From a virus (Duplodnaviria > Heunggongvirae > Uroviricota > Caudoviricetes), in IMG/VR virus record IMGVR_UViG_3300018432_000003, positions 19,394-83,393 of that record: a stretch of 64,000 nucleotides of DNA. One strand, written 5' to 3'. The notes under the pieces were generated by a model. It made no database searches, had not been told where the DNA came from, and worked only from the letters and a program-made list of their open reading frames with translations. Numbering within the stretch: position 1 is the first letter of the stretch; each line of letters begins with the position of its first letter. Position numbers and translations under genes: made by a program. Below are positions 1 to 39,080 of this stretch, piece by piece.

Positions 1-47
1 TTAGTGCCTCGTCCTTTCGTCTGCTTTGCTGTCATATACTCTCCTAG

Positions 48-120
48 TAGACCACATAGGATTCGAACCTATACTGAGCGGTACTTAAAGCCGCTGCCTC
101 TGCCGTTGGGCTAGTGGTCC
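48..120 (-). tRNA. tRNA, anticodon UAA (Leu-like) but short variable arm; identity uncertain
   Basis: RC shows acceptor ggaccac/gtggtct, T-arm atagg-attcgaa-cctat, anticodon stem gcggt/gccgc around loop reading UUUAAGU on the - strand; C31.A39 mismatch. Confidence 0.6.
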
Positions 121-126
121 GAAAAG

Positions 127-209
127 TACCCACATTCGGAGTCGAACCGAAACGCACTAAGGGCACAGGGTTTTGAATCCTGCGTGTCTACCAATTCCAC
201 CATGCGGGC
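127..209 (-). tRNA. tRNA-Leu (CAA), type II
   Basis: T-arm ttcgg-agtcgaa-ccgaa, long variable region, anticodon loop UUCAAAA on - strand, 83 nt. Confidence 0.6.
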
Positions 210-220
210 ATATTGTGAAG

Positions 221-292
221 GGCGATGGACCGGACTCGAACCGGCACTTTAGCGGACACAACGCTAATTTCTGCCATTGAATTACCAACGCC
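221..292 (-). tRNA. tRNA-His (GUG)
   Basis: T-arm accgg-actcgaa-ccggc; anticodon stem tagcg/cgcta with loop UUGUGUC; extra 5' G(-1) opposite discriminator C as in His tRNAs. Confidence 0.65.
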
Positions 293-350
293 ATGATTGT
301 ACTTTGGGACGCGGGTACCGTTATAGCCACTGGACTTCTCCCAAAGTAAG

Positions 351-432
351 TACCGCCCACGAGAGTCGAACTCGTACGCCTGTGAAGCACTGACTCCTCA
401 AGCCAGCGTGTCTACCATTCCACCAGAGCGGC
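351..432 (-). tRNA. tRNA type II (long variable arm), anticodon tentatively GAG (Leu)
   Basis: T-arm acgag-agtcgaa-ctcgt, acceptor accgccc/gagcggc with G-U pairs, 82 nt; anticodon arm assignment ambiguous. Confidence 0.5.
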
Positions 433-483
433 ATATAGAGGTCAATAGCGGCGAAGGGGTTTCCTTAGCCGCCACTGCCCAAG

Positions 484-566
484 TACGAGTAGAGGGATTC
501 GAACCCACACGCCCGAAGGCACTGCGTTCTAAGCGCAGCCTGTCTACCAATTCCATGCATACTCGC
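484..566 (-). tRNA. tRNA-Leu (UAG), type II
   Basis: T-arm gaggg-attcgaa-cccac, variable hairpin gcc-cgaa-ggc, anticodon stem ctgcg/cgcag loop CUUAGAA on - strand. Confidence 0.65.
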
Positions 567-580
567 AAGTTGTGTAAAAG

Positions 581-669
581 CGGAGGTAGTAGGAGTCGAA
601 CCCACACGATGACACCTCTGCCACCATCACGGTTTTCAAGACCGATAAGCACGCCAATGCGTACCCCCG
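581..669 (-). tRNA. tRNA-Ser (UGA), type II
   Basis: T-arm gtagg-agtcgaa-cccac, 89 nt with long variable arm, anticodon loop CUUGAAA. Confidence 0.6.
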
Positions 670-673
670 TAAG

Positions 674-760
674 CGGAAAGCCTGGGACTTGAACCCAGAA
701 CGTGACGTTATGCACGCGCTTCCTTAGCAGGGAAGTTCCTCGTCCAGCCGGTCACTTTCC
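674..760 (-). tRNA. tRNA-Ser (GCU), type II
   Basis: T-arm ctggg-acttgaa-cccag, anticodon stem cttcc/ggaag loop CUGCUAA, 87 nt. Confidence 0.65.
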
Positions 761-874
761 ATATTGTCCAACGTGCCCCAACCAATCGCACGCCAGTTCG
801 GACGGCATAACGCGCCCTTACCATAATGTGCTGTGGAGCGAAGTCCACAGAGCGAGGGGGTTATGTTGTGTAAG

Positions 875-946
875 TGGGCCAGGAAGGATTCGAACCTACG
901 GCTTCCTCTTTGTAAGAGAGGCACTCTCCCGCTGAGTTACAAGCCC
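875..946 (-). tRNA. tRNA-Val (UAC)
   Basis: T-arm gaagg-attcgaa-cctac, anticodon stem cctct/agagg loop CUUACAA. Confidence 0.65.
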
Positions 947-954
947 ATTATAAG

Positions 955-1025
955 TACCGATACCCGGATTCGAACCGAGGCTACAACCTTGAGAGGGTTG
1001 CGTGCTACCGCTACACAATACCGGC
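955..1025 (-). tRNA. tRNA-Glu (CUC)
   Basis: T-arm cccgg-attcgaa-ccgag, anticodon stem caacc/ggttg loop CUCUCAA. Confidence 0.65.
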
Positions 1026-1031
1026 ATAAAG

Positions 1032-1102
1032 CTCCGGGCCGTGGAATCGAACCACGATTTCTGGATTCAGAGTCCAGCGTGCTGCCTTTACACCATCCCG
1101 AA
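1032..1102 (-). tRNA. tRNA-Gln (CUG)
   Basis: T-arm cgtgg-aatcgaa-ccacg, anticodon stem ctgga/tccag loop CUCUGAA; U1-A72 start as in Gln tRNAs. Confidence 0.65.
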
Positions 1103-1188
1103 ATAGATTGTTACCAACTGCGCTTTCCGAAGATACTCCAAGTGCGCTTAATCACCAGAATCTCCTTGTCATGTTGCCTCCTTTGTTG

Positions 1189-1262
1189 TGGACGTACTAG
1201 GACTCGAACCTAGGACTTCCTCTTTATGAGAGAGTTGCTCTAACCAACTGAACTATACGTCC
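1189..1262 (-). tRNA. tRNA with CAU anticodon (elongator Met or Ile-lysidine)
   Basis: Perfect acceptor ggacgta/tacgtcc, T-arm ctagg-actcgaa-cctag, anticodon loop CUCAUAA. Confidence 0.7.
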
Positions 1263-1267
1263 AAAAG

Positions 1268-1339
1268 AGACTCTAGTTGGATTCGAACCAACGTGTACGG
1301 GGTTGCAACCCGCTACCTCCACCACTCGGCCATAGAGTC
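1268..1339 (-). tRNA. tRNA-Cys (GCA)
   Basis: Perfect acceptor gactcta/tagagtc, T-arm gttgg-attcgaa-ccaac, anticodon loop UUGCAAC. Confidence 0.7.
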
Positions 1340-1351
1340 AATGAGATTATA

Positions 1352-1443
1352 CTTGGGGGCAGGGAATCGAACCGTGCCATTTGGAAGTAGCCTTCAACTA
1401 GAGGTTCCACGCATCCACGTTTTACCACTTAAACTACCCAAGT
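1352..1443 (-). tRNA. tRNA-like gene, type II length, anticodon not resolvable (possible aberrant or pseudo tRNA)
   Basis: T-arm caggg-aatcgaa-ccgtg and D-arm-like gttt-aagtggtaa-aaac present but acceptor stem has 2 mismatches and no clean anticodon stem found. Confidence 0.35.
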
Positions 1444-1538
1444 AAAATCATCTCGGATTTCCAGCCTCCAGGTCACCGAGGACTACGCCATGTAGCCATG
1501 CCTTGTTGTTTCATACCCTCGTGGTATGAACCCACCAG

Positions 1539-1612
1539 TCGGGAATGTTGGACTCGAACCAACGACCACTCGCATCCGAAGCGAGTACGCTACCAAACTG
1601 CGCCAATTCCCG
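1539..1612 (-). tRNA. tRNA-Pro (CGG)
   Basis: Perfect acceptor cgggaat/attcccg, T-arm gttgg-actcgaa-ccaac, anticodon stem ctcgc/gcgag loop UUCGGAU. Confidence 0.7.
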
Positions 1613-1646
1613 TTTGCGTGTTTTGGTGTGGTTGCACGCTCCACAG

Positions 1647-1720
1647 TTGGCGTGCTCGGACTCGAACCGAGAACCCCTGCGTTCCAAACGCAGCACTCTG
1701 ACCAATTGAGCTACACACCA
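1647..1720 (-). tRNA. tRNA-Pro (UGG)
   Basis: T-arm ctcgg-actcgaa-ccgag, anticodon stem ctgcg/cgcag loop UUUGGAA. Confidence 0.7.
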
Positions 1721-1729
1721 ATTGTAAAG

Positions 1730-1801
1730 TGGTTTCGGTAGGAATCGAACCTACGACACGATGGGCTTCAACCAACTGCTCTACCTCTGAGCTACGAAAC
1801 C
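1730..1801 (-). tRNA. tRNA-Phe (GAA)
   Basis: Perfect acceptor ggtttcg/cgaaacc, T-arm gtagg-aatcgaa-cctac, anticodon loop UUGAAGC (one stem mismatch). Confidence 0.6.
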
Positions 1802-1807
1802 ATGTTG

Positions 1808-1879
1808 CTCCCCGACTAGGATTCGAACCTAGGACATACGCATTAACAGTGCGCCGTTCTGCCGCTGAACTATCAGGGA
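1808..1879 (-). tRNA. tRNA-Asn (GUU)
   Basis: T-arm ctagg-attcgaa-cctag, anticodon stem acgca/tgcgc loop CUGUUAA, U1-A72. Confidence 0.65.
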
Positions 1880-1976
1880 ATGTTACCCGTTATCGCCCCC
1901 AACTGGTTTAGCCGATAGTGGGACTTCCGGCCTACGCAGCGGTCCCACAGGGCGTTGTAGCCACGGGTGGGGCTAG

Positions 1977-2058
1977 TGGATGCACTAGGATTCGAACCTA
2001 GGTAGCACATGGCAACAGGTTTACAGCCTGCCCTCGTTGTCCGCTTGAGTATACATCC
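1977..2058 (-). tRNA. tRNA-Tyr (GUA), type II
   Basis: T-arm ctagg-attcgaa-cctag, 82 nt with long variable arm, anticodon loop CUGUAAA. Confidence 0.65.
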
Positions 2059-2075
2059 ATATTGTATGCCCCAGA

Positions 2076-2117
2076 ACGCCAGTTCCAATGTTGGGAATCG
2101 AACCCGGAGCATATAGT
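2076..2117 (-). pseudogene. tRNA 3'-half remnant (acceptor 3' strand + T-arm only)
   Basis: ttggg-aatcgaa-cccgg T-arm-like motif but only ~40 nt before the next complete tRNA; no room for D/anticodon arms. Confidence 0.35.
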
Positions 2118-2191
2118 AATGACGGGTGGACTCGAACCACCGACGTACAGGATATGAGCCTGCTGTTCTGCCGACTGAACTACGCCATCAT
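2118..2191 (-). tRNA. tRNA with CAU anticodon (Met/Ile2-like; A1-U72, not initiator-like)
   Basis: Acceptor atgacgg/ccatcat, T-arm gtgg-actcgaa-ccac, anticodon stem acagg/cctgc loop CUCAUAU. Confidence 0.6.
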
Positions 2192-2196
2192 GTGAG

Positions 2197-2269
2197 CGGA
2201 AGTGACGAGAATCGAACTCGCTCTTGAACCGTGACAGGGTTCCGTGCAGGACCACCACACTACACCTCC
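2197..2269 (-). tRNA. tRNA-Asp (GUC)
   Basis: T-arm acgag-aatcgaa-ctcgc, anticodon stem gaacc/ggttc loop CUGUCAC, discriminator G. Confidence 0.7.
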
Positions 2270-2309
2270 GATGGGGCAGTTGTTTCAGGCACAGCTACCA
2301 AAGCCTCAT

Positions 2310-2378
2310 AGCGGGTTACAGAGTCGAACTGCAAACACGAGGACATGAACCTCGTATGTTACCTTTACACCAACCCGC
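2310..2378 (-). tRNA. tRNA with CAU anticodon (third CAU species: fMet/Met/Ile2 candidate)
   Basis: Perfect 7-bp acceptor gcgggtt/aacccgc, anticodon stem cgagg/cctcg loop UUCAUGU, weak T-stem. Confidence 0.55.
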
Positions 2379-2387
2379 ACGCTATAG

Positions 2388-2626
2388 TGGAACCGGCGGG
2401 GGTTGAACCCGCGTCTTGAATCGAATCATTGGGAGTAGTTCTTTGAGTGTTTCTATCCGTATTAGAGGGCTGCTACTAGTTCCCTTTCCTCTACGGTCAC
2501 AGTGTCAACGTCTGCGAGGAATGACTCAATCTCTGCCGCCAAGTCCTCAGCTTCCTGAGATACTACAATATCATTGCCGTGTGTTTGTTCTGCCCCTATC
2601 AATCCAATCGAAACCAGTACGGCCCC
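2388..2626 (-). ncRNA. ssrA: tmRNA (SsrA)-like RNA, compact ~239 nt; tag ORF at 2462-2536 (-) encoding AEIESFLADVDTVTVEERELVAAL
   Basis: The - strand 5' end GGGGCCGTACTGGTTTCGATTGG parallels E. coli ssrA GGGGCTGATTCTGGATTCGACGGG. The 3' end GACGCGGGTTCAACCCCCGCCGGTTCCA parallels GACGCGGGTTCAACTCCCGCCAGCTCCA. The 5' GGGGCCG pairs with 3' CGGTTCC and includes a G3.U70 wobble. An in-frame GCA resume codon lies ~90 nt from the 5' end and the ORF ends AAL-stop 45 nt before the T-arm. CCA is not encoded. Confidence 0.55.
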
Positions 2627-2915
2627 AAAAGGGTCGCCCCCGCTCCCCGAGAGAAGCGGGCACGATATAAGTTGGAAGGTGGGACTGTCATCCCACAACG
2701 AGAGGTAAAGCCTTGACATCGCAAGTCTGCTCTCGACCTCACACGCTCCCCGGTAAGGGTAACACAGTCTACTAACCCCTCGGCTTTCGGGCCTCACACG
2801 GTAATGTCCCGCTACATGGCACTCTTCTGCGTTGCACGTATGCGACATTATCCCCGACGCTTTACGGCAGGGATTTTTCTGCCACTTCCGGTAGCCAGCC
2901 GTCGCCAGCTACTAG

Positions 2916-2987
2916 TAGGACATGACGGATTCGAACCGACACCGGCCACCTTGAAAGGGTGGTGAGCTTCCGTTACTCCAATGTCCC
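2916..2987 (-). tRNA. tRNA-Glu (UUC)
   Basis: T-arm gacgg-attcgaa-ccgac, anticodon stem ccacc/ggtgg loop CUUUCAA. Confidence 0.65.
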
Positions 2988-6385: not shown

Positions 6386-7288
6386 ATGGGTTACTTGGAT
6401 GACTTCATCCATTGGTTGAATAACGAAGTCGGTGGGGAAGGACCCTTACCAGGGTTGGACCACGGTGACTTCGGACAGATTATGGGTGAGAGCCTCTCAA
6501 GGCACTACGCTGAGGACAGACAGAAGGGTGGCTTGCGAATGAGCAACATCGGCAAGCCTGCCGCAGTGCTCGCACTCGCCCACCTAGGGTACGTTGAACC
6601 TGAACCTAAAGGTAAGTCTCGCATAATCTTCCTGATGGGTGACATGTACGAGAACTGGTTGGAGGTCATGCTCAAGGTTTACGGATTTGAAATCATAGAG
6701 AGCCAGCCTGAGATGAACTTCATGGGTATTACAGGTCACGCCGACTTCGTGATTAAGAACCCTGAGAACGATGAACCACTCATCATTGAAGCTAAGACGA
6801 TGAGTGAAGGGTATGCGAGGATGTTCTCACGGGAACTCAACGACGACCGGGGGTACATATCACAGCTTGGCATGTACAGTCACGGTTATCGGAAGGAACC
6901 TACCGACTGTACTTGGGTGTGTTTCAATAAAGGGAATGCCGAGACATTCGAGTTGGTCCCACCGGAAGGGTTGATACTCCAAAGACTCGACCGCGCCGAA
7001 CAGGTCATCAAGAGGGTTCGGAGGGTTAAGTCCGTTGAGGACATCTTGGAACAGGTTAGGGTGCCCCCACCGAGGCCGGAAGTCTACCAGAAGAAGGAGA
7101 CTGGTAAGTTCCTCGTTCCAGGGTCCTTATCGTACAGTCCTTTCAAGCGTGCCCTCTACGTTACATCCGACGGAACTAACGGGTACGGTAAGCCTACCAC
7201 TTACGTGGATAGGGAAGCCGACAGTGCGCACTTGAAGAAGGAACTTGAACTACTAGTTGAGTCAGGTACGGTGATGCTCGATGGTTGA
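6386..7288 (+). CDS. PD-(D/E)XK nuclease, RecB/YqaJ-like exonuclease candidate
   Basis: GHADFVI...IIEAKT (D...ExK core) plus YISQLGMY; ATG 6386 after AAAGGA SD (track start 6356). Confidence 0.45.
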   Translation: MGYLDDFIHWLNNEVGGEGPLPGLDHGDFGQIMGESLSRHYAEDRQKGGLRMSNIGKPAAVLALAHLGYVEPEPKGKSRIIFLMGDMYENWLEVMLKVYGFEIIESQPEMNFMGITGHADFVIKNPENDEPLIIEAKTMSEGYARMFSRELNDDRGYISQLGMYSHGYRKEPTDCTWVCFNKGNAETFELVPPEGLILQRLDRAEQVIKRVRRVKSVEDILEQVRVPPPRPEVYQKKETGKFLVPGSLSYSPFKRALYVTSDGTNGYGKPTTYVDREADSAHLKKELELLVESGTVMLDG

Positions 7289-8645: not shown

Positions 8646-8946
8646 CATTGAGTTCAACGCAGAGCAGACTCAGAGACTAGTGGATGCAGTGGAGAATGCC
8701 GCCTACGCATACGTGTACGCCACTGGTTACATGGGTCATGCACAGCAACTCATGGAACTTGAGAACGCCAAGAAAGGCCAGAGTTCCTATGCACTCAACG
8801 CTAGGGTTGATGCCAACAGCGAAGCATTCGTTAAGGCAACCCTCAATACGATAAAACAGATTATACAGGACCCTGAGTTTGATGAACTGACCAACCAGCA
8901 CATCGCAAAGAAGTTGGACTTCCAGAGTGAGGCAGCGAAGCGATGA
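8635..8946 (+). CDS. hypothetical protein (103 aa)
   Basis: ORF. Confidence 0.45.
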   Translation: MAINIEFNAEQTQRLVDAVENAAYAYVYATGYMGHAQQLMELENAKKGQSSYALNARVDANSEAFVKATLNTIKQIIQDPEFDELTNQHIAKKLDFQSEAAKR

Positions 8947-9197
8947 TTCTGTGTGATAACGGGTGTGGAACCGTTGTAGGCTCCACCGAAAACCCTTTTT
9001 ACCAACTAAGGGTCATTGATGCATTCGAATCTAGCGAGGCACACCACTTCTGCTCAGTAGGGTGCGCTTCTGATTGGTTGACCTTGACATCACAGGGGTT
9101 GAAGGCAATAAGGTGGGGGAATCTGCCTGGATTTGTATATGATTCGGGCACTGGTCAATATGAGGCCCGTTCTCGGGACCAAATGGTTACTGATTAG
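8943..9197 (+). CDS. small Cys-containing (putative zinc-binding) protein
   Basis: CDNGCG ... CSVGC motifs. Confidence 0.45.
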   Translation: MILCDNGCGTVVGSTENPFYQLRVIDAFESSEAHHFCSVGCASDWLTLTSQGLKAIRWGNLPGFVYDSGTGQYEARSRDQMVTD

Positions 9198-9413: not shown

Positions 9414-9889
9414 TGCCTCTTTGAAAAAACCTGTGGAGAGGTAGAGCATTCGTTGTAGGTATCAGGAAAAACTTAATGGGGGTGGGTGTATAGAATGGAC
9501 CTAGCCTTTGACATACTATGCCTCCCCTTGGGCTTTTTTACCCCCCCTACCCTTACTCAAACCGGGATACCTAAGCCACTCTGAGCGATTATGCGAACGG
9601 TTCTTGATTCGGTTGGAAGTATGCAATATACGGTAACATAGGAATGGTCTTTTGCCATAGTATGCGAGTTGGCAGTTCACTAGCCTCACCCAGAGTAATG
9701 AAACCCCACGAAATCCGCATACCTAAGCAACATATAGTCATCACTTGAAAAACATATAGTATCAGCATAATCCTAGCGTGATATCACGTACTATATGAAA
9801 TTAAAGTTCGAGCCTCACTCAACACGATGAGGCTAGACTGCCAGCATCGGTTTCATCGGTATCAGTGAGGCTATCATAACATCGCCTAT

Positions 9890-10075
9890 CATCTATACGC
9901 TTATCAGTATATATCAGTACATACCAACATATACGCTTAACAGTATGTATTGATGTATACGCTATATCGTATGTATATGTACTACCCTATGTATACGCTA
10001 TATCGTATGTATCTATAGCCCATGATGTATACGCTATACCGTATGTACTACCTATACGCTATACCGTATGTGTAC
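9890..10075. repeat. iteron array: ~6 direct copies (26-36 bp period) of dyad-symmetric core TATACGCT(A/T)TA(T/C)CGTATGTA
   Basis: Copies starting near 9894, 9930, 9956, 9992, 10027, 10053; core TACGCTATAYCGTA is an inverted repeat. Confidence 0.6.
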
Positions 10076-10133
10076 CCTTACTGTACTACCCTTACACTGT
10101 ACGTATACACTGTACAATACCCTTGATAACCCT

Positions 10134-10470
10134 TTGTTTTGCAATATCAAGAACTATTCCTATAATCGCTCTATCCCTGATACATATAGGCTATGATACT
10201 ACCGTTACACTTGACACTTTGTTTTGCAATTCGAGAGTAATAACTATTATTAGAATAGCTCAATCACTGATACTTATAGGCTATGATACTACCGTTACAG
10301 CTACCTTACCCTTGACAGATTGCGCCTATATTCCAAGAACAAGAACTATTCCTATAATCGCTCAACTTGGCTTATTTATCGGGAATAGTCCACTTTTACT
10401 ACCTTACTAGAATGATGTAACCCTTTACGGTGTAAGCTGAAATAAGAACTATTCGTGATTTCGCTCAATT
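10134..10470 (+). repeat. repeat cluster: TTGTTTTGCAAT (x3 + one at 10595), AAGAACTATTCCTATAATCGCT (x2 exact + variant), GATAC(A/T)TATAGGCTATGATACTACCGTTACA (x2)
   Basis: Direct repeats read from sequence; two copies form TTGCAA/TTCCAA-N16-TATAAT promoter-like units (10139-10166, 10331-10358). Confidence 0.55.
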
Positions 10471-11423
10471 CCCCCATTCTATCAGCATTCTGCCCACATC
10501 GCCGCTTGTAACATCATCGGGCTAGAAAAAAAGTTTGAAAGATTTCTCAAAAAGGCCGGATTTCAAGCCTATAGCGGCATCTGAGGCCATTTTGTTTTGC
10601 AATTCGGCCCTGCAAAAAGTGCTGTTTTGGCTTGTAACACCTTGCGGCATCCCGATTCTAGCTTTAAGGTTATACCCATGAAGTTGAGGCCGAGAGGGAC
10701 TCGGCGGCGAGGAAAGCGCCTAGACGCGAGAGCGAAGAACTTTCCGCTTGAAAATTGAATAGAGAGCGAATCGCCCGCAGGGAAGAAATTAAGCCCGCCA
10801 GCGGTACACTCCAAAGGGTTGAATAGCCCAAAGGTAACGCTCTCCCGGATGTTCAGCATAGGCGGCTGAAATAGGGTTGAAAGCCCGCTCACGTAGCGTC
10901 GTCACTGTTTAGCCTAGTGTGGCACATCTTAACGGGAGAACGCTCACGATAGCCCGCAAGCGCCACGGCGCAAGCGGTACCAGCATCGGCCAAGTAAGCT
11001 AAGAAATCACCGCTTGTAACAAAGAGGTTACAAAGAGGTACAAGCGGTTCAATCGGGAGAGCTAAAGGGTTAACGGTAGCTGATACCTAAGCGGTTCGTG
11101 GGAATGTAACCCTACGCAAAGGGTACAGTCTAAATCTCTATTCAAGGGTTACCTAATGTGGCTGGTAAGCACTTAGGGATACGGTAAAGGGTAACCCAAA
11201 ACATAGCGCCACGAACGGTTTTTAACCGCATTCTCGGAACGGTCTAGCGGCATGCTCCCGTTACTGTGGCGCGAAAAATGGGTGACGTTCGCCCAACATA
11301 GTCCCGAAAATCCCCAAGTAACTCCAGTTACTATATCCCACACTGATACGGTCCTACGGTAGTAATACCGTGGCACTTTTGCTCCCGTGGCACGGTATCA
11401 GTGCATGCTTCACAGTAACGTCT

Positions 11424-11699
11424 GAGGCGGAGCTATGTCCAATGTCCTCAGTTGCAGTACTTGATTGGCGCGGCCTTCGTACCCGCGCAAGGCGGAGCTA
11501 TGCAACAAATTAAGCAAGCATGCAGTACCGTAGGTACTCCGAAAGGCGGCACGGAGGATAATCCGTCGCATCTTTACACGTAAGGCGTGCGCATTCGGTT
11601 GGATGCCGAAAACGGCCATGTTCAATCATGGTGGCGAACCCGTTCGACTCGGGTATGCGTACCTACGCGCTCGTGGGTGGTCCACGAGGCGGAGCTATG
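11424..11699 (+). repeat. three copies of AGGCGGAGCTATG each preceded by a GC-rich palindrome, in a ~65% GC island
   Basis: Copies at 11424-11437, 11489-11502, 11686-11699. Confidence 0.5.
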
Positions 11700-11726
11700 C
11701 CCTAAAAGGGCAGAAAGGAGGGCCTC

Positions 11727-12143
11727 ATGGCTCTCAAGAACATCGAGGTTGCGGACCAGGGCACGAAGGTCGTTCTGTTCCCGAAGGCGAAGGAAGCGGG
11801 CACGCGGTTCACGCTCAACGCGAGCGAGAGCAAGCAGCTTCGCGCCCACGTCGCCCGCTACGTGGAGGCCGACTCCCGCGAGTTGCCGTACAACGACCGG
11901 CTTTCCGCCAACAAGCGCGTTGGCCTCAAGCGCAACAACGGCCTGCTCACGGGCGAGAACGCCCACGTGCTGGAGGCGCTCATGGCGGCGAAGGCTCGCG
12001 CCACGGGTAACGCCCCCGCGCAGTCCACGCCTGAGCCGCAGGCTGTCGCCGCTGGCAGCGGTCCTCGCAAGCGCACGAACAGCGACTTGACGAAGATGAC
12101 GAAGGCCGACTTGGTGAAGCTCATCCAGAAGCTCCAGTCGTAG
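11727..12143 (+). CDS. Ala/Arg-rich protein with C-terminal HeH/Rho-N-like motif (putative DNA binding)
   Basis: Strong SD AAAGGAGGG-ATG; C-terminus LTKMTKADLVKLIQKLQS; GC ~65% vs ~50% flanks. Confidence 0.5.
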   Translation: MALKNIEVADQGTKVVLFPKAKEAGTRFTLNASESKQLRAHVARYVEADSRELPYNDRLSANKRVGLKRNNGLLTGENAHVLEALMAAKARATGNAPAQSTPEPQAVAAGSGPRKRTNSDLTKMTKADLVKLIQKLQS

Positions 12144-12484
12144 CAACACGCACACGGGTGGTGCCCCGCGCATTGTGGGGCACTTCCCTCCCAACCGAAA
12201 GGATGCATCATGCAGATTCCCGCTCAGGAAGCCGCGTACACGTACTGCCGCACGGGTGTATGGATGGCATGGCTCGACGAGATGCCGATGTCGTACATGA
12301 AAGCGTTCTGGATGTGGGTCGATTCCTACGTGTAGACGCGCACGTTTTGGGGAAATTTCAACCGAAGCAAGGGGGTATGTTTTGAGGCATGCAACGCGGG
12401 AACGCAGGCACCCGCTAGGGGGTACGGGTAGGCGTCCGAACCGCATCTGGCGGGCACGTAGAGTGTTCAGCTACCGTTACAAGA

Positions 12485-12817
12485 ATGGGTTTTTCTTCTA
12501 GGAAGGTAGGGGGTATGCCTAACAAGCATGGGAGCAAGTGGATTCGCCCTGCAAAGCGCAGGCGCATATACGAGCGGGATGCATGGGAATGCTGCTACTG
12601 CTCGAAAAATCTGCACTTCGAGGTCGCGTCATCCCGCGAGAGGACGCTTGACCACATCGTGCCACGTGTACAAGGGGGTTCCAACGCAGAGACAAACCTC
12701 GTGACGGCATGCATAACGTGTAACAGCGCACGCGCTGACCGCGAACTGCCGAGCGAATTACTGGAAAAAGCCCTCGCATGGGCGGGGGTATGTCTACCGG
12801 GAGAGGCGGTTGCATGA
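12485..12817 (+). CDS. HNH endonuclease
   Basis: CxxC...LDHIVPRVQGGSNAETNLVTACITCNSAR; alternative start 12515 after AGGGGGT. Confidence 0.7.
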   Translation: MGFSSRKVGGMPNKHGSKWIRPAKRRRIYERDAWECCYCSKNLHFEVASSRERTLDHIVPRVQGGSNAETNLVTACITCNSARADRELPSELLEKALAWAGVCLPGEAVA

Positions 12818-13119
12818 TGCATTGCTTCGTGTGTGGTGAGGACAGCGCAGAACTGAAAGTCGATGGTGGTTGGAACAGGCACATCCATGCAGAATGCAAG
12901 GGGGTCTATCCGCTCGCGCAGGAGTATGCGGAGAGGTACACGTACCAGGAGACAGAGCAGGACGACGCCGTGCTGTATGGCATGGAGAAAGCCGCGCAGT
13001 TGATGGGGGTAGACTGGAACACTGAGGTAATCACGACGAGCCTACGCCTTGAGAACATGGCATACAACGAGTGGCGCAACGAGTCCATCGAAGAAAAACT
13101 CGCCAAAGGGGGTTGGTAG
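12790..13119 (+). CDS. hypothetical Cys-rich protein
   Basis: ATG after GGGGGT (track start 12778); CFVCGE ... HAEC. Confidence 0.45.
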   Translation: MSTGRGGCMMHCFVCGEDSAELKVDGGWNRHIHAECKGVYPLAQEYAERYTYQETEQDDAVLYGMEKAAQLMGVDWNTEVITTSLRLENMAYNEWRNESIEEKLAKGGW

Positions 13120-13120
13120 C

Positions 13121-13312
13121 ATGCACGAAACAGCCGACAGATTGATGCAACTGGCGGAGCAGAACGCACAGTGCGCCGTGAACAGGCTGCACGAACTCAA
13201 CAACCGAGTGTTCATCGTACCGGAGGAAGAACTCAGGAATGCGTTGGAGGACGTGCGTCGTGCAGAGCACCAGATACAGGGCGTCCTGTACATGATTGAA
13301 GGGGGTAGGTAA
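13121..13312 (+). CDS. hypothetical small protein (63 aa)
   Basis: ATG 13121 after AGGGGGTTGGTAGC (track frame starts 13049). Confidence 0.4.
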   Translation: MHETADRLMQLAEQNAQCAVNRLHELNNRVFIVPEEELRNALEDVRRAEHQIQGVLYMIEGGR

Positions 13313-13608
13313 TGCAGTTCAAGGACATCCCGAGTTACAGTGACCGTCTACGTCTACGTCAGGGCACGGTCGTCAGCGAGAACGGAGAGTCGTTGCTCGT
13401 CAGCACGATAGAGGTACCAGAGCCGTCCGAGTACGGGGGTTTCCGGTACGAGAGTGCAATCCTACTATGCGACGAGCAGGGGTTCGTACCTAGCTTCCCA
13501 GACACGAGGAAGGACATACTCCACTACATACGCACGAACGACGAGTTCGCAGCGAAGCTGTACCACATCGCCAACAAGCACAACGCGGCAGACCTGATAA
13601 GGGGGTAG
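13312..13608 (+). CDS. hypothetical protein (98 aa)
   Basis: GAAGGGGGTAGGTA-ATG, start overlaps upstream stop. Confidence 0.5.
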   Translation: MQFKDIPSYSDRLRLRQGTVVSENGESLLVSTIEVPEPSEYGGFRYESAILLCDEQGFVPSFPDTRKDILHYIRTNDEFAAKLYHIANKHNAADLIRG

Positions 13609-13612
13609 CAAC

Positions 13613-13783
13613 ATGACGTTCGTAATCGTCGAGTTCGACAAGGACACCATGCAGCAGAGGAACACGCGCCTAGAGTGCATGCTAATCCATGCAGCGTGGC
13701 GCATCGCCTCAACCATGAACAGGAACGAGAGGCGGAACGGCAACCGCAAGGCGTACACAATCCAGGCGTACTCATACGCATAG
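13613..13783 (+). CDS. hypothetical small protein (56 aa)
   Basis: AAGGGGGTAGCAAC-ATG; below track cutoff. Confidence 0.35.
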   Translation: MTFVIVEFDKDTMQQRNTRLECMLIHAAWRIASTMNRNERRNGNRKAYTIQAYSYA

Positions 13784-13793
13784 GGGGTTAGAC

Positions 13794-14066
13794 ATGCACC
13801 GCAGGGACTACGAAATCATGGACAGGGAAGGATGCACGTGCTGTGTATTTGACCCGTTCGTGATGGTTACACATCCACGCACAGGTGAAGTCGTAGACAC
13901 ATTCCCTGTGAATGTATGCGACAGAGGCGCAACGCTACGCTTGGCAGCAGGGTTGTTGGGCAGCAAGGTAGACAGTGCAGAAACCGTAGGCGAGAGGGAT
14001 GAGAGGCTGGAGAGGTTCTTCAAAGCACGTCACGCATACTTCGACCATGTACGGTACGGGAGGTAG
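13794..14066 (+). CDS. hypothetical protein (90 aa)
   Basis: TAGGGGGTTAGAC-ATG. Confidence 0.5.
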   Translation: MHRRDYEIMDREGCTCCVFDPFVMVTHPRTGEVVDTFPVNVCDRGATLRLAAGLLGSKVDSAETVGERDERLERFFKARHAYFDHVRYGR

Positions 14067-14133
14067 TCATGTGGGTAAGGGAACGAAGGGTTAACGGTTC
14101 GTGCGTGTTCTACGTCAGGGTTTGGAGGAAGGC

Positions 14134-14406
14134 ATGATTAGGGAAGCACACGAAGATTCACGCGACTTCGAAGGGATAAGCATGACCCCGGAGGATGTAC
14201 TCATCGGTTTCGTCACTGAACTAGAGAGCGGCATGCTTGCGAACGCGGTACTCGTGGCCGACAGCATGGGGGTTCGCTTGAACCTCACGAAGTACAGCAC
14301 AGTCATGGACATCGCCGCCCAGGTAATCGACGGCCTCGAAGAAATAGATGCATGGCGTGAGGCTGGCTACTGGCGTCGTAACTTCAACGTGATGGGGTGG
14401 CTGTAA
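14134..14406 (+). CDS. hypothetical acidic protein (90 aa)
   Basis: ATG 14134 after GGAGGAAGG (track start 14101). Confidence 0.45.
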   Translation: MIREAHEDSRDFEGISMTPEDVLIGFVTELESGMLANAVLVADSMGVRLNLTKYSTVMDIAAQVIDGLEEIDAWREAGYWRRNFNVMGWL

Positions 14407-14430
14407 CGTGCGCAGAGTATACAAGGTAAT

Positions 14431-14709
14431 GTGCTTGACCCGTGCAGTCATACGCATGGGTCGCATGACAGTACAATGGAAGGTAGGGGCATGAACGACA
14501 AGGTAATTCTGGACACGCAACGCCTGAACAACATCGTAGTAGAGTGTACAGCGAACATAGTCGTGGACGGCGAGGATGTAAGGCTGAGCGTAATGTCCTT
14601 CGGTGAAGGTGAGGTTGGTACGGAGAACGCATTCGGTAAGATGGAAAAGATACTCCCGAGCATAATGGGCGTCAAGTTCCAAGAGGTCGAAATTGTGAGG
14701 GTATACTAA
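14431..14709 (+). CDS. hypothetical protein (alt starts 14476/14491)
   Basis: ORF; internal ATG 14491 has better SD (AAGGTAGGGG). Confidence 0.4.
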   Translation: MLDPCSHTHGSHDSTMEGRGMNDKVILDTQRLNNIVVECTANIVVDGEDVRLSVMSFGEGEVGTENAFGKMEKILPSIMGVKFQEVEIVRVY

Positions 14710-14966
14710 TGCCTGACGTATTGATGGTAGCACACGACATAACGGAAGCATACCGTAAAGGCCACGAACTCCAACTGCAAGTGTGCATGGATGGGGGTTT
14801 CATTGACCTCTACAACATCACCACTGGCGAGCCTGTAACATCCTGGTCGGACGAGGAAATCATAGAGTACCAGGATGCAGAGAACAGGCTCCTACTCGCA
14901 GACATAATGCACACTGCGATAGAGTACGACGTGCCAATCAAGGTAGTGACGTGGGAGCAGACGTAA
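14709..14966 (+). CDS. hypothetical acidic protein (85 aa)
   Basis: ORF, TAATG overlap. Confidence 0.45.
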   Translation: MPDVLMVAHDITEAYRKGHELQLQVCMDGGFIDLYNITTGEPVTSWSDEEIIEYQDAENRLLLADIMHTAIEYDVPIKVVTWEQT

Positions 14967-14970
14967 AGGA

Positions 14971-15294
14971 GTGAATGTGAAATCTTCCCTAACAAAAATT
15001 GCGATTCTCATAATGGCGGCAACGCTGGCAATCACATTGCTGGCATACGTGCAGGAGGCCAACACCGCAACATTCCAAGACCGTTACATCATCTCGGCGG
15101 AGACATACAAGCAAGTCGTACCGACGAAGTACGGCAAGATTTATCGTCACGTCAAGCGTCACGACAAGAGTGCGGCGAGGACTATGGTTGACGCCGCGAG
15201 GGATGTATGCAAGAACACGGTCAATCGTGCGGTGTTCGTACAGCCAGGGAGTGAAAGCAATCACCCTGACTTCGACTGCTACACACGATTCTAA
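14971..15294 (+). CDS. secreted/membrane-anchored protein (N-terminal signal-like helix)
   Basis: GTG start after AAGGAG; LTKIAILIMAATLAITLLAYV hydrophobic N-terminus. Confidence 0.45.
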   Translation: MNVKSSLTKIAILIMAATLAITLLAYVQEANTATFQDRYIISAETYKQVVPTKYGKIYRHVKRHDKSAARTMVDAARDVCKNTVNRAVFVQPGSESNHPDFDCYTRF

Positions 15295-15462
15295 GGAGGA
15301 AGCATGACAGCATTCTACATTGCAATCTACCTCAACGAGTACAAAGGGGGTCAGGTAGGCCCCACGATATGGGCGAACACACTTGATGAGGCCCAACGTA
15401 AAGCAGAGAGCATGTTCGGCAACATCCCGGTGGTTGCCTGCTACGCATAATTATGCAGAAAG

Positions 15463-28790: not shown

Positions 28791-29369
28791 ATGAATGTAC
28801 GCATGAATGAGGATGGGGTCGAGGTACAGGGCGGATTGAATGTAGTCGTAACTGACGAGTCCGTTGCAATTGAGGACGGTAAGCTCATCGTCAGCAAGAA
28901 AGGCGAAGGATATCTCGTCCAGGCGGAAGGGTTCGCCACGATTGAGGCCAACACGGACAGTGCTTCGTACAATGCTCCGCAGTACGACCAGCACTACTAC
29001 AGTGGTGGCAACAACTACCTGAGCATAACGCAGAGCGTGGCGCGTGCGATGTCTCGCATTGATGGCATGCTTGACGAGAAGTACCTCGAAGAGATTACTG
29101 ACGCTGAGTATGACCTCGTGGCTGACGTAGTGAAGGGCATCATCGAGGATACGGACACTCAGGGTCGTCACACAGTGTACAAGGTTGCCGGTGGAGTCCT
29201 CTCTGGTATGCATGACGGTACCTACGAGGGTGTTCCCTTCGCATGGCTGTTTAAGGGTGTTGTGGAGGGTCACATCACTCCCCCTGAGCAGTTCGCTCCC
29301 GCAGTACCGCAGGGCGGCGTAGCTGAGGCGTTGACTGCATACCCGATGTACTTCGGTCGGGGTGCCTAA
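28791..29369 (+). CDS. hypothetical protein (192 aa)
   Basis: ORF downstream of promoter. Confidence 0.5.
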   Translation: MNVRMNEDGVEVQGGLNVVVTDESVAIEDGKLIVSKKGEGYLVQAEGFATIEANTDSASYNAPQYDQHYYSGGNNYLSITQSVARAMSRIDGMLDEKYLEEITDAEYDLVADVVKGIIEDTDTQGRHTVYKVAGGVLSGMHDGTYEGVPFAWLFKGVVEGHITPPEQFAPAVPQGGVAEALTAYPMYFGRGA

Positions 29370-29829
29370 CAGGAGAAAACTCCCTAAGTTCCTCACGGCC
29401 AAGCAGTATGCTGCGAAGATAGGTAAGTCGAAAGAGTGGGTGTTGGGTATGTTAAGGGAGGAACGCATACCTGACGCCCAACTCCTTCCTGTCGGCTGGA
29501 TTATACCAGAGGATGCGCAGATTATACTTAGGCGGGCCGACATGTTGCTGCCCCCTGAATTCATCAAAGGCGTGAAGCCTAGGGAGGAACCTGTATATTC
29601 TCCACGTGGGAAGAACATGGACCCTGACAAGCCTTACCACACTGTGGAGGTACCGGGGTTCGAGCGTGTGGTGCTAGGGTACAGTCAGAGGGAAGTGTAC
29701 GAGAGGACTAAGGTGCATCCGATAACACAACGTAGAATCCGTGATGGCAAGCCGGTAGCTGTAGATGTAGTGCGCCGTCTAGCGTTCGGTATGGGTGTAC
29801 ACATTGACGAGCTACTCAGGAGGAAGTAG
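29362..29829 (+). CDS. DNA-binding protein with two helix-turn-helix-like segments (putative transcriptional regulator)
   Basis: N-terminal LTAKQYAAKIGKSKEWVLGMLRE (MerR/excisionase-like HTH); C-terminal second HTH-like stretch. Confidence 0.45.
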   Translation: MPNRRKLPKFLTAKQYAAKIGKSKEWVLGMLREERIPDAQLLPVGWIIPEDAQIILRRADMLLPPEFIKGVKPREEPVYSPRGKNMDPDKPYHTVEVPGFERVVLGYSQREVYERTKVHPITQRRIRDGKPVAVDVVRRLAFGMGVHIDELLRRK

Positions 29830-30048
29830 ATGCCAGAGCGTGTATTCGACGGGGTTCTCAACTTTGATGATGCCTACTTTGACTCACGATGTGTAGAGTG
29901 CAACTCAATCATTGATTGGGAGGAAGCTGGTGAGGGTTTCTGGTTCCACAAGTGTTGTGGTAGGTACTACCAGATTCAGATTTACACTGTACTGCGGACC
30001 ATAGAACAGGAGGGATTGTTAGATGCCGTTAAGCGAACCGGAGAGTAA
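29830..30048 (+). CDS. small Cys-rich (zinc-ribbon-like) protein
   Basis: CVECN ... HKCC. Confidence 0.45.
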   Translation: MPERVFDGVLNFDDAYFDSRCVECNSIIDWEEAGEGFWFHKCCGRYYQIQIYTVLRTIEQEGLLDAVKRTGE

Positions 30049-30316: not shown

Positions 30317-30485
30317 GGTTCTTAGTGGTCACCCAAGGAGTGTGAACGAGAGTCTCCCGGAATACCTGGAGAATGGGTGGAGAGTGACACACATGCACAG
30401 TTATGGACTGTCACACGTCACTGAACACAGCAGCAGTGTGAGCCATGTGGTCACGCTAGTGATAGAGAAGGAGGAAGATGATTGA
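30300..30485 (+). CDS. hypothetical protein (61 aa)
   Basis: ORF. Confidence 0.4.
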   Translation: MTMKARVLSGHPRSVNESLPEYLENGWRVTHMHSYGLSHVTEHSSSVSHVVTLVIEKEEDD

Positions 30486-31245
30486 AGAAGCTCGTGAATC
30501 CTATAAGCGTGGTTGGTCCCTCATTCCTCTCCACGAAGGCGATAAACGTCCTAATCTGGCTATTGGTCACCCATACCTCTCAAGGCGACCCACTAGAGAA
30601 GAGTATCAGGGCTTTACTTTCGGGAACTACGGAGTCGTATGTGGAGAACTATCAGGCATCTGTGTTCTCGATGTCGATGGAGAGAAAGGTGTTGAAGCTC
30701 TCAGAGCGAGGGATATAGAACCTGAGCACGACTTCTGGACTCCTACAGTGGTGACCCCTGGTGGGACTCACTACTACTTCAAGTATAACCCTAGGGTTCA
30801 GACTGGTGTACACATACTAGGGAAGGGTTCTCACGTTGACATACGTAGCGATGGTTCATACGTCGTTGGCCCAGGCAGTACCGTTGACGGTGTTGCTTAT
30901 CGTTGGGTTGAGGACCTTAACCCGGAAGAGGTAGACTTCCAAGAGCCACCGGACTTCATGTTCGAGCATAAGCGTGCATTGAAGTTGGAGGTCGCTGACG
31001 AGGATAACCCTTACATGCTCGCAGGGTTGATAACGGAGGGTTCTCGCAACCTGACGTTGCTGAGCGTCGGTGGTTTGCTTGTGAAGTACCGCTCAGTGCA
31101 GTATGAGGTCATGAGGGCATGTCTCCACTTCCTGAACGATAATCTGATGGAGACACCACTCCCTGACGATGAAGTGGACACGATAGCGAAGAACGCAGAG
31201 CGTTACAGGGAAGATAACTACGAAGGGATATACAATGCTCGGTGA
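30478..31245 (+). CDS. bifunctional primase-polymerase (Prim-Pol N-terminal domain + PriCT_1)
   Basis: VLDVDGEKG ... TPTVVTPGGTHYYF ... DIRSDGSYVVGPGS, then PriCT_1-like GSRNLTLLSVGGLLVKY...LPDDEVDTIAKNAERY. Confidence 0.6.
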   Translation: MIEEARESYKRGWSLIPLHEGDKRPNLAIGHPYLSRRPTREEYQGFTFGNYGVVCGELSGICVLDVDGEKGVEALRARDIEPEHDFWTPTVVTPGGTHYYFKYNPRVQTGVHILGKGSHVDIRSDGSYVVGPGSTVDGVAYRWVEDLNPEEVDFQEPPDFMFEHKRALKLEVADEDNPYMLAGLITEGSRNLTLLSVGGLLVKYRSVQYEVMRACLHFLNDNLMETPLPDDEVDTIAKNAERYREDNYEGIYNAR

Positions 31246-34517: not shown

Positions 34518-34546
34518 TTGACTTCTGCCGAAAAGTGTGCTATAAT
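34518..34546 (+). promoter_or_regulatory. sigma70-type promoter TTGACT-N17-TGcTATAAT with ~140-nt AT-rich leader
   Basis: cTTGACTtctgccgaaaagtgtgcTATAATg. Confidence 0.55.
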
Positions 34547-34685
34547 GTATATATAAGTTACACTACTTAAAGGAGAGTTTATTAGTATATTAATATACTT
34601 AACGGTTAAAGGTTACTTATCTATCTGTAAGTAGCAGGGCTTATTTACTAGTCCTAGACAAAGGTTATTGAGAGTAGGAGGTTGG

Positions 34686-38766: not shown

Positions 38767-39073
38767 CGTAGGCGAGAGGGTCATTGCGGGTGATAACATT
38801 GTAGGCTTGCAGGACGGTCAGTGTACAGCATACAAGATGGACTGGCCGATGTACGAACAGAACCCTGTGTACATGTTCGTAGTGGAGGTACTCAGTACGG
38901 GTGAGCAGCATGCATTCACTCGCCCGTTCACCATATACTTCCGCAATGGATGGCCTAGCTTAGTGTGGGAGATTAGTAATGGACAACTAGTAGCCGTACC
39001 TATCACCAGGGCTGCACTGAAGCAGGCCGGTAGCGTGTGGCTTGTGGAGGAAGCTAATGAGAACGTCAACTAA
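38747..39073 (+). CDS. hypothetical protein (~108 aa)
   Basis: ATG 38747 (track 38684). Confidence 0.4.
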   Translation: MRQYEDNVGERVIAGDNIVGLQDGQCTAYKMDWPMYEQNPVYMFVVEVLSTGEQHAFTRPFTIYFRNGWPSLVWEISNGQLVAVPITRAALKQAGSVWLVEEANENVN

Positions 39074-39080
39074 CTTCAAG

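Follow-up and report, generated by a model that had tools for sequence, protein, structure and literature searches.

The replication origin of phage lambda contains four dyad-containing repeats of 18-19 bp that are bound by the O protein, alongside an AT-rich region, and the origins of plasmids and of phage P1 (oriR) combine iterons with repeated AT-rich 13-mers. The OR and OL operators of lambda overlap promoter hexamers and flank the repressor gene, and the left end of the T7 genome has a terminal repeat, the 7-bp SRL repeats by the physical end and the tandem host promoters A1-A3. The origins of the Ceduovirus c2, a lactococcal phage, are described as non-coding, bounded by the first early promoters and of unrelated types in close relatives, with conservation of function (PMC7150918). 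Repeat region 3 of phage T5 (1.2 kb) carries nine DRD repeats and many palindromes, and the region is highly conserved among T5-like phages and has paired DnaA boxes (10.1101/866236). Here we compare with these systems an array of six direct repeats in a 64,000-nucleotide stretch of DNA from a tailed phage (IMG/VR record IMGVR_UViG_3300018432_000003), which we refer to as "the window". The array lies in a region of 2.3 kb (9414-11726, "the gap") that contains no open reading frames (ORFs) except short, low-complexity ones; the remaining DNA is densely coding, and this is the sole large non-coding stretch in the 64 kb apart from a cluster of tRNA genes. A preliminary description, made from the letters of the window alone, had recognized this ORF-free region correctly and had proposed that the repeats within it are a replication origin or an operator cluster. 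We conclude that the six repeats are a cis-acting DNA element, neither a gene nor a known RNA, and that they are lineage-specific, partly palindromic sites that have been kept by selection and are probably bound by a protein. More tentatively, and with rather less than even confidence, we suggest that the array might be the iteron and unwinding module of a transcription-activated replication origin.

The repeats, which we call A-type iterons, are each 20 bp long and occupy the following positions.

9894-9913, plus strand: A-type iteron, copy 1
9930-9949, plus strand: A-type iteron, copy 2
9956-9975, plus strand: A-type iteron, copy 3
9992-10011, plus strand: A-type iteron, copy 4
10028-10047, plus strand: A-type iteron, copy 5
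10053-10072, plus strand: A-type iteron, copy 6

The copies start 36, 26, 36, 36 and 25 bp apart, with spacers of 5-16 bp, and this spacing of 25-36 bp does not follow a regular helical phasing of about 11 or 22 bp. Their consensus is TATACGCTataccGTATgTa, where capitals mark the positions that are the same in all six copies; the invariant positions are TATACGCT....C.GTAT.T, and the unit can also be written TATACGCT..GTATGTA. Copies 3-6 are mutually 90-100% identical, and copies 1-2, which differ from them in the centre, make up a sub-type (TATACGCTTAWCAGTATRTA). The six-copy array that had been claimed is thus real (9894-10072) and it is without copies elsewhere in the 64 kb: the iteron pattern, with up to three mismatches allowed, gave five matches in the window, all of them in the array, against 0.00 expected from shuffled sequences, and the other ~12 kb of the contig that was examined contained no copy.

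Identity among the iterons averages 84% (94% for copies 3-6), as compared with 31-50% among the three spacers of 16 bp. Because the units are conserved and the spacers have diverged, whereas a recent tandem duplication would have preserved both, the 20-bp unit appears to be under selection, and the contrast would most simply reflect sequence-specific recognition of the unit. The preliminary description had gone further, in holding that the core of each unit is an inverted repeat and that a dimeric protein binds it. When the core, TACGCTATAYCGTA, is compared with its own reverse complement, 12 of 14 positions match in the four copies 3-6 and ~8 of 14 in copies 1-2. Monte-Carlo tests of the dyad gave P=0.047 with mononucleotide shuffling and P=0.11 when the pattern of purines and pyrimidines was kept, and we therefore regard the dyad symmetry as largely a by-product of an alternating purine-pyrimidine (R-Y) composition. 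The direct-repeat character is a much stronger signal than the dyad symmetry. A binding-site character of the units accordingly remains likely from the contrast between units and spacers, and it is the step from there to a dimeric protein that is weakened by a dyad that is not significant once composition is allowed for.

Other identities of the repeats were considered and rejected. An array or mini-array of clustered regularly interspaced short palindromic repeats (CRISPR) has repeats of 23-47 bp and unique spacers of similar length, in contrast to the units of 20 bp and spacers of 5-16 bp seen here; a CRISPR-like or anti-CRISPR repeat is likewise ruled out by the geometry, and searches of Rfam gave no match of CRISPR type. 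A known RNA family is ruled out as well, since the gap has no real match in Rfam at either gathering or permissive thresholds, the array itself yielding only sub-threshold noise from microRNA models.

The array is also set apart by its physical properties. It has a GC content of 35%, and the fraction of its dinucleotide steps that are R-Y or Y-R is 0.79-0.80, the maximum for the 64 kb, where the window-wide value is 0.51 +/- 0.047. A nearest-neighbour free-energy scan placed the least stable DNA of the window at the same site, in the two segments that follow.

9891-10290: least stable 400 bp of the 64-kb window (+5.7 standard deviations), comprising the array and the first two of the promoter-like P-units described below
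9887-10086: least stable 200 bp of the 64-kb window (+4.8 standard deviations)

The GC content of this low-stability stretch is 35-37%, as compared with about 51% elsewhere, and on its predicted helix stability the segment 9891-10290 is a candidate unwinding element. In origins of the iteron type the low-stability DNA flanks the repeats, whereas in this array it is the repeats that have the lowest stability.

Relatives of the phage were found by way of a PD-(D/E)XK nuclease that is encoded 2 kb upstream of the gap (6455-7288) and has ~36 metagenomic homologues at 44-86% identity. The contexts of five of these homologues were compared; the nucleases of the two contigs designated L004 and L005 are 73-77% identical to that of the window. 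A large gene-poor gap exists at the syntenic place in every long contig compared.

L004, 11892-14165: syntenic gap
L005, 4735-6453: syntenic gap
L008, 13590-14730: syntenic gap
L007, about 14382-15350: syntenic gap
L007, 12440-12830: additional repeat tract

By BLASTN the similarity of the gap to its counterparts in L004 and L005 is patchy, being limited to a conserved block at the left edge (CB1), a flank containing GAGGCTA (9850-9889, 87%), the P-units (86-90%), parts of the untranslated leader that follows them and the 3' end of that leader. L004 and L005 do not share the iteron stretch itself and have a different array between the same conserved flanks. In L005 the unit TACGTACAGTGTAAGT occurs 7-8 times about 30 bp apart, with two copies of 31 bp that are perfectly identical, and the array also holds two fragments of the window's iteron and shows the contrast between units and spacers too. 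The L004 array consists of ACACTGTATATAC/TATACACACT repeats followed by (CA)11, and L004 also has four copies of ACACTGTA. Immediately beyond the iterons, the window itself contains three units of another sort (B-type, 10077-10116), whose sequence is that of the L005 unit in reverse complement, and the arrays therefore appear to be related but differently amplified, with the B-type expanded in the relatives. Despite this turnover, the arrays of the two relatives are the most R-Y-alternating stretches of their own loci (0.73 in L005 and 0.83 in L004) and are among the least stable DNA of these loci. Absence of the repeats from related phages had been put forward as grounds for abandoning the original proposal; the exact repeat is indeed absent from them, which is not decisive in view of the different array that they have at the same site. 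An unwinding element whose binding sites co-evolve would be expected to behave in this way, with a physical property conserved while the sequence turns over.

Downstream of the array are four tandem P-units of 23 bp (AAGAACTATTCCTATAATCGCTC; 10149-10466), spaced 90, 102 and 103 bp apart, and a long leader that precedes the first gene.

10149, plus strand: start of the first P-unit
10239, plus strand: start of the second P-unit
10341, plus strand: start of the third P-unit
10444, plus strand: start of the fourth P-unit
10470-11726, plus strand: ORF-free leader of 1.25 kb from the P-units to the first downstream gene, patchily conserved with L004 and without an Rfam match
11588-11726, plus strand: conserved structured end of the leader

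The first and third P-units (P1 and P3) have a perfect TATAAT with a non-consensus -35 (in P1, TTGCAA-16-TATAAT, or 10 of 12 positions, a sigma-70 score that is not above chance when taken alone), and the units share a conserved AAGAAC(AAGAAC) box. They are a distinct, locus-specific class of element that occurs in the window only in the gap and is conserved in L004, L005 and a third contig, L120. From the TATAAT box, the position and the conservation in four phages we infer that the P-units may be active as promoters. The last iteron ends at 10072, which leaves 66 bp before P1, and the nearest promoter-like -35 is at 10139, such that the iterons overlap no promoter hexamers.

Elsewhere the phage makes use of promoters of a very different quality. 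A sigma-70 scan of the window detected eleven perfect TTGACA-17-TATAAT promoters, many with an extended TG, where ~0.008 would be expected, and three further promoters that score 11 of 12.

4318, 4032, 3509, 3276 and 3160, minus strand: consensus sigma-70 promoters, five in tandem, reading into the tRNA cluster
4324 and 6314, plus strand: consensus sigma-70 promoters that serve the 4.4-9.4-kb module
24798, 28724, 34518, 40380, 43153, 48011 and 51820: remaining consensus-type promoters, distributed over 24.8-51.8 kb

The scan found no consensus sigma-70 promoter between 6314 and 24798, so that transcription of the block of small genes at 11.7-24.8 kb must either start in the gap or arrive by read-through. 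The relatives have the same pattern of consensus promoters, and the structural module is without any.

The leader is GC-richer over ~1.1 kb (10470-11590), which is a candidate long non-coding transcript; 10751-11021 is 76% identical to L004, and the middle is unrelated in L120. Its structured end contains, in order, a tRNA-like element (11588-11663), the hairpin GCTCGTGGGTGGTCCACGAG, the sequence GGCGGAGCTATG, a GCCC-N5-GGGC hairpin and a strong Shine-Dalgarno sequence. The tRNA-like element is reported by ARAGORN as "tRNA-???", also in L004, and has the T-arm CCCGTTCGACTCGGG; in the T-arm and hairpin, 8 of 24 pairs have changed on both sides in a compensatory manner. The element may be a processing site of the RNase P/Z type between the long leader and the mRNA. 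The counterparts of this structured end are as follows.

L004, 14065-14220: structured leader end
L005, 6390-6455: structured leader end
L120, 1270-1356: structured leader end
L008, 15020-15113: structured leader end

These comparisons show the repeats, their selective conservation and uniqueness, the instability of the helix, the constancy of position and the change of sequence among the relatives; protein binding, transcription from the P-units, melting and the initiation of replication are inferred, in the following scheme. A phage (or host) protein would bind the repeated units. Transcription from the P-units would send negative supercoiling back into the array and would produce the long untranslated transcript. 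The low-stability array might then melt and provide a point of entry for the DnaB-type helicase, the Prim-Pol primase and the family-A polymerase of the phage. Since DnaB, Prim-Pol with PriCT, and PolA give the phage a replisome of its own, it needs such an entry site, and the concentration of at least seven repeat families in the sole large non-coding region is the usual signature of an origin-type nucleoprotein site. The gap is, moreover, less than 6 kb from the strand switch and skew minimum described below, and forks that leave it would thus move mostly in the same direction as transcription. It seems possible, if short of an even chance, that an origin accounts jointly for the repeat families, the conserved instability, the tandem promoter-like units and the long untranslated transcript, and the c2 origins offer a direct precedent for this reading. 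As between an origin and an operator, which the preliminary description had left side by side, the features are compatible with an origin or a control region, and it is the classical operator that is disfavoured by sites that overlap no hexamer and lie 66 bp upstream; we have a slight preference for the origin-type module.

A number of observations weigh against an origin at this site. The cumulative GC-skew minimum, which had been suggested as a check, with a minimum elsewhere counting against the proposal, lies at 4.0-4.4 kb and not at the array, and the gap shows merely a small local dip at 10.0-10.8 kb. This is not decisive: the minimum falls exactly at the switch between minus- and plus-strand genes (~4.3 kb), and because skew and the direction of transcription are confounded, the result weakens but does not refute the origin reading. 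The repeats are unevenly spaced (25-36 bp), where classical iterons are phased at ~22 bp, and as single-stranded DNA the array folds into hairpins or cruciforms no better than shuffled sequences (z=-0.6). The gap contains no DnaA box (TTWTNCACA), and the three found in the 64 kb are at chance level. The unrelated repeats of L007 and L008, which are more distant relatives, (C/A-rich 9-mers and GCAGAG-type, respectively) are not low-stability DNA. The comparably repeat-rich untranslated region of T5 is not the origin of that phage (10.1101/866236). There is also a competing origin-like site in the window, nearer the genes for Prim-Pol and ribonucleotide reductase (RNR) and lying between them. 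At 34518-34630 a near-consensus promoter (TTGACT-17-TGcTATAAT) precedes the 100 bp with the lowest stability in the window (34531-34630, z 5.6) and, at 34584-34599, a perfect palindrome of 16 bp, AGTATATTAATATACT; we regard 34518-34650 as an alternative candidate origin or operator.

The search for a protein that might act on the array weighs on the same side. Among the flanking and larger genes scanned there was no initiator, repressor, ParB-like protein or other DNA-binding family, and the genes that flank the gap gave no informative match in Pfam or PHROG, with no replication-initiator, helix-turn-helix (HTH) or ribbon-helix-helix (RHH) family found. The genes for Prim-Pol, PolA and DnaB are 20-40 kb from the gap. 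The protein at 29362-29829, which had been described as HTH and nominated as a binder, has only a weak PHROG match (E 8.5e-4) and is encoded 19 kb away. Two neighbours of the gap deserve mention.

11727-12143, plus strand: first gene after the gap, encoding a protein of 138 amino acids (aa), conserved in all relatives
8943-9197: gene adjoining the gap, encoding a Cys-rich protein of 84 aa, present only in the three phages with R-Y arrays

The 138-aa protein has no match by sequence in the Protein Data Bank (PDB) or by Foldseek with its AlphaFold2 model, which is of moderate confidence (predicted local distance difference test score, pLDDT, 67). Its C-terminal KMTKADLVKLI helix presumably resembles a motif of the SAP/HeH type, an assignment that is our own and that no tool confirmed. 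The 84-aa protein evolves fast (40-60% identity to just two homologues) and was assigned to no recognizable family in family searches; we consider it to be a lead and not evidence.

The explanation that competes most seriously with an origin is that the array might be an upstream operator or enhancer of delayed-early promoters, at which an immediate-early protein would bind the six sites cooperatively and switch the P-units on or off. We consider this possible, though on the unlikely side. For the 11.7-24.8-kb block there are no candidate promoters other than the P-units, in a phage that, like its relatives, otherwise relies on perfect promoters, and with their perfect -10, poor -35 and AAGAAC(AAGAAC) box the P-units have the architecture to be expected of activator-dependent promoters, for which the MotA-box middle promoters of T4 offer an analogy. 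That the array ends so close upstream of P1 and varies in sequence between relatives at a kept position, as immunity or specificity regions do, would fit such a role, as would a fast-evolving Cys-rich protein encoded just before the gap in R-Y-array phages only. However, the sites lie off the promoter hexamers and precede only the first of four P-units, the iteron motif is found at no other promoter, and no HTH, RHH or repressor-like protein was identified among the neighbouring genes. The dyad symmetry is not significant, P1 by itself is at chance level, and 2.3 kb with seven repeat families far exceeds the normal needs of promoter control.

Two further explanations seem to us rather improbable. 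The gap might be a genome-end, packaging or DNA-entry region similar to the T7 left end, or an injection stop of the T5 iss type. The order of elements is suggestive in this respect: a 5-kb module of small early genes under strong host-type promoters comes first, followed by a repeat-rich untranslated region and then by the remaining early genes, a lay-out that parallels the first-step-transfer region of T5, with an array and 3-4 tandem promoters ~100 bp apart that recall SRL and A1-A3 of T7. Several metagenomic contigs are also interrupted within the gap: L120 begins precisely at a P-unit, L119 begins 243 nt ahead of the downstream gene, and there is a run of N in L005. The repeats themselves explain such breaks equally well, however, and four long contigs (81-96 kb) cross the gap at differing distances from their ends. 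There is no terminase gene close by, the structural genes are encoded on the opposite strand at a distance of more than 45 kb, and the paired DnaA boxes of T5 have no counterpart.

The array could, alternatively, be a hypervariable minisatellite without sequence-specific function, produced by slippage in a flexible, AT-rich R-Y spacer upstream of promoters and having at most a physical role (as an insulator, in Z-DNA or supercoil absorption, or in bendability). The repeat sequence is not conserved in close relatives, the identical 31-bp tandem copies of L005 and the (CA)11 of L004 are hallmarks of slippage, and the feature that is conserved is one of composition (R-Y alternation and low stability), which also explains the dyad. 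We see only a small chance for this explanation nonetheless, since recent duplication would have conserved the 16-bp spacers (31-50%) along with the units (90-100%), the same contrast recurs in L005, and the spacing is irregular and not head-to-tail. A composite of a kind not previously described, in which a hypervariable R-Y array, conserved flanking motifs, four activator-type promoters and a long untranslated transcript cut at the tRNA-like element would be combined, with the transcript as the primer or R-loop of a new transcription-primed origin or with the region as a T5-like checkpoint for DNA entry between immediate-early and later genes, has in our estimation no better than a slim chance.

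The at least seven families of direct and inverted repeats in the gap are specific to the locus and have no copies outside it within the window. The elements other than the iterons, P-units and leader are listed here.

9460-9589, plus strand: CB1, on the left margin of the gap, containing a weak terminator-like hairpin and T-run (GCCTCCCCTTGGGCTTTTTT)
9583-9608, minus strand: inverted copy of the promoter-like unit (AAGAACCGTTCGCATAAT), specific to the window and not conserved in L004 or L005
9681-9873, inverted repeats: nested block built on the (A)GTGAGGCTA motif
9681-9690, minus strand: (A)GTGAGGCTA motif
9810-9819, minus strand: (A)GTGAGGCTA motif
9828-9834, plus strand: (A)GTGAGGCTA motif
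9864-9873, plus strand: (A)GTGAGGCTA motif
10077-10116, plus strand: three units of the B-type (CTTACTGTAC, CTTACACTGTACGTA, TACACTGTACA), palindromic core TACASTGTA
10133-10145, 10218-10230 and 10591-10603, plus strand: TTTGTTTTGCAAT motif, interleaved with the P-units

No other non-coding block of the gap is as widely conserved as CB1 (CTTAATGGGGG ... CCTAGCCTTTGNCATACTATGCC ... GGGCTTTTTT), which is present in all five phages of a five-phage alignment, with identities of 82% to L004 and L005 and 76% to L008. It could be a terminator plus another signal, or a small RNA. Its counterparts are the following.

L004, 12076-12157: CB1
L005, 4718-4847: CB1
L008, 12410-12476: CB1
L007, about 11925-12000: CB1

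The flanking hairpin of the preliminary description (AGCCTCA at 9811-9817 and TGAGGCT at 9828-9834; 9811-9834 overall) was found as described, and it proved to be contained in the larger inverted-repeat block at 9681-9873, which also holds the palindrome CGTGATATCACG and folds as DNA with z=-3.36, none of 200 shuffled sequences being as stable. Within the gaps of the relatives, AGTGAGGCTA occurs five times in L005 and once in L004. The ACTGTAC repeats, which had likewise been noted, are present at 10077-10116 and hold two copies of the palindrome TACACTGTA; a role of TACACTGTA as a dispersed operator was ruled out, as the site at 29983 is inside an ORF and the frequency is that of chance. The TTTGTTTTGCAAT motif is conserved in L005 and inverted in L004 (13190-13204).

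Some other features of the relatives were seen in passing. The repeat tract of L007 at 12440-12830 has ~40 copies of 9-nt units of the CACCATGAG/TACC type, and L008 has GCAGAG-rich repeats at 12680-14570; both lie at or close to the syntenic site and are strongly strand-asymmetric, and these tracts are partly interleaved with an extra gene that shares a KPRTNRDVKP motif. About 0.8 kb downstream of the gap, an HNH endonuclease is encoded at a syntenic position in four phages with 58-79% identity, which is unusual for a mobile homing endonuclease.

Window, 12485-12817: HNH endonuclease
L004, 14685-15197: HNH endonuclease
L005, 7339-7635: HNH endonuclease
L007, 16510-16719: HNH endonuclease

The window is part of the Logan assembly contig SRR6958552_156708 (85,983 bp), a position in the window being the position in that record minus 2846. 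The 138-aa protein is identical to one encoded on a 95,940-bp JGI contig (cluster record P0042), and the Logan contig is probably an incomplete copy of a genome of roughly 96 kb. The ~10 kb of the Logan contig beyond the parts examined probably carry the terminase gene. DNA and protein searches of INPHARED and IMG/VR detected no close cultured or IMG/VR relative of this tailed phage. When the gap, the iteron, the downstream gene and the nuclease were each used as a single query, neither database gave a close relative; a profile search of IMG/VR retrieved only relatives of at most 37% identity, in unrelated contexts, and a scan of genome contigs for relatives gave no matches. The accessions of the sample and of the assembly gave no result in the literature. 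A metagenome-wide scan with a degenerate P-unit pattern produced 83 matches, all of them attributable to chance and without similarity to the window. The remaining landmarks of the window are given below.

47-2987, minus strand: cluster of 21 tRNAs and a transfer-messenger RNA (tmRNA; Rfam match 2385-2626)
30478-31245: Prim-Pol
39042-40472: CCA-adding enzyme

The relatives have 18-27 tRNAs each, and L004 also has a tmRNA, with a long tag peptide. The plus strand carries the genes between 4.4 and 56 kb, among them those for a class II RNR, PolA, the CCA-adding enzyme, DnaB and Prim-Pol/PriCT; beyond 56 kb the minus strand has lysis and tail genes. The gap follows the immediate-early module of 4.4-9.4 kb, which encodes 13 proteins, and precedes a 13-kb block of small genes, the first of which (11727-12400) have a GC content of 60-64% as compared with ~51% for the genome, which points to another origin or to a strong bias in codon usage. 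The phage looks lytic, neither an integrase nor a repressor having been seen among the genes scanned.

For large uncultured phages, replication origins and early control regions are essentially unmapped, and this locus offers a concrete candidate that can be tested. It is of consequence for methods of origin prediction that the sequence has been replaced at the same site while the instability of the helix and the R-Y alternation were kept, and the locus might serve as a clean example of selection on a physical property of DNA together with lineage-specific binding sites. If the array is part of an origin, the element could, given a host, seed shuttle vectors or interference tools of the Per type; if it is a control element, it would define the switch from immediate-early to delayed-early expression in a phage that otherwise uses textbook-perfect sigma-70 promoters.

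In comparison with the systems introduced at the outset, the locus resembles iteron origins in its several direct repeats of ~20 bp with partial internal symmetry, its low-stability DNA and the neighbouring transcription, and lambdoid origins in a repeat sequence that differs between related phages. At least three direct repeats of ~17-22 bp that are better conserved than their spacers, and adjacent AT-rich DNA of low stability, are present as in iteron origins; a cognate initiator gene (Rep, O or RepA type) in or beside the iterons was not found among the flanking genes. The array thus differs from these origins in not being in or next to an initiator gene, in its spacing of 25-36 bp and in lacking DnaA boxes. 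With the c2 origin the likeness would extend to the absence of an ORF or ribosome-binding site, the four tandem promoter-like units (here TATAAT-based, with P1 at only 10 of 12 as against the usual 12 of 12), a predicted untranslated transcript and the varying sequence types. The c2 origin is a few hundred base pairs long and lies exactly between divergent early and late modules, whereas the 2.3-kb gap is situated 5 kb inside a plus-strand block, the divergence being at 4.3 kb and the start of the gap at 9.4 kb.

With T5 repeat region 3 the gap shares a large untranslated stretch packed with repeats and palindromes that follows small early genes, in a tRNA-rich genome of siphovirus size; in contrast to T5, the array is hypervariable, having been replaced in L004 and L005 with only the flanking motifs kept, and there are no DnaA boxes and no protein homology. 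As at the T7 left end, short repeats are followed within ~100-300 bp by 3-4 promoter-like elements ~100 bp apart that lead into early genes, but the P-units are weaker than the eleven perfect promoters of the phage and genes on the same strand lie upstream. The resemblance to OR and OL of lambda consists in multiple similar sites of 17-20 bp with a partial dyad, near promoters, whose specificity varies between relatives; unlike those operators, the six sites are upstream, off the -35 and -10 hexamers and separated by long spacers, and no repressor or other regulator gene was found adjacent to them. Repeat-rich origin or control regions of phages are a known class, and the gap is a member of it from a lineage without a cultured representative. 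What is more unusual is that close relatives have a different array with the same physical properties, and that the neighbouring leader has a tRNA-like element.

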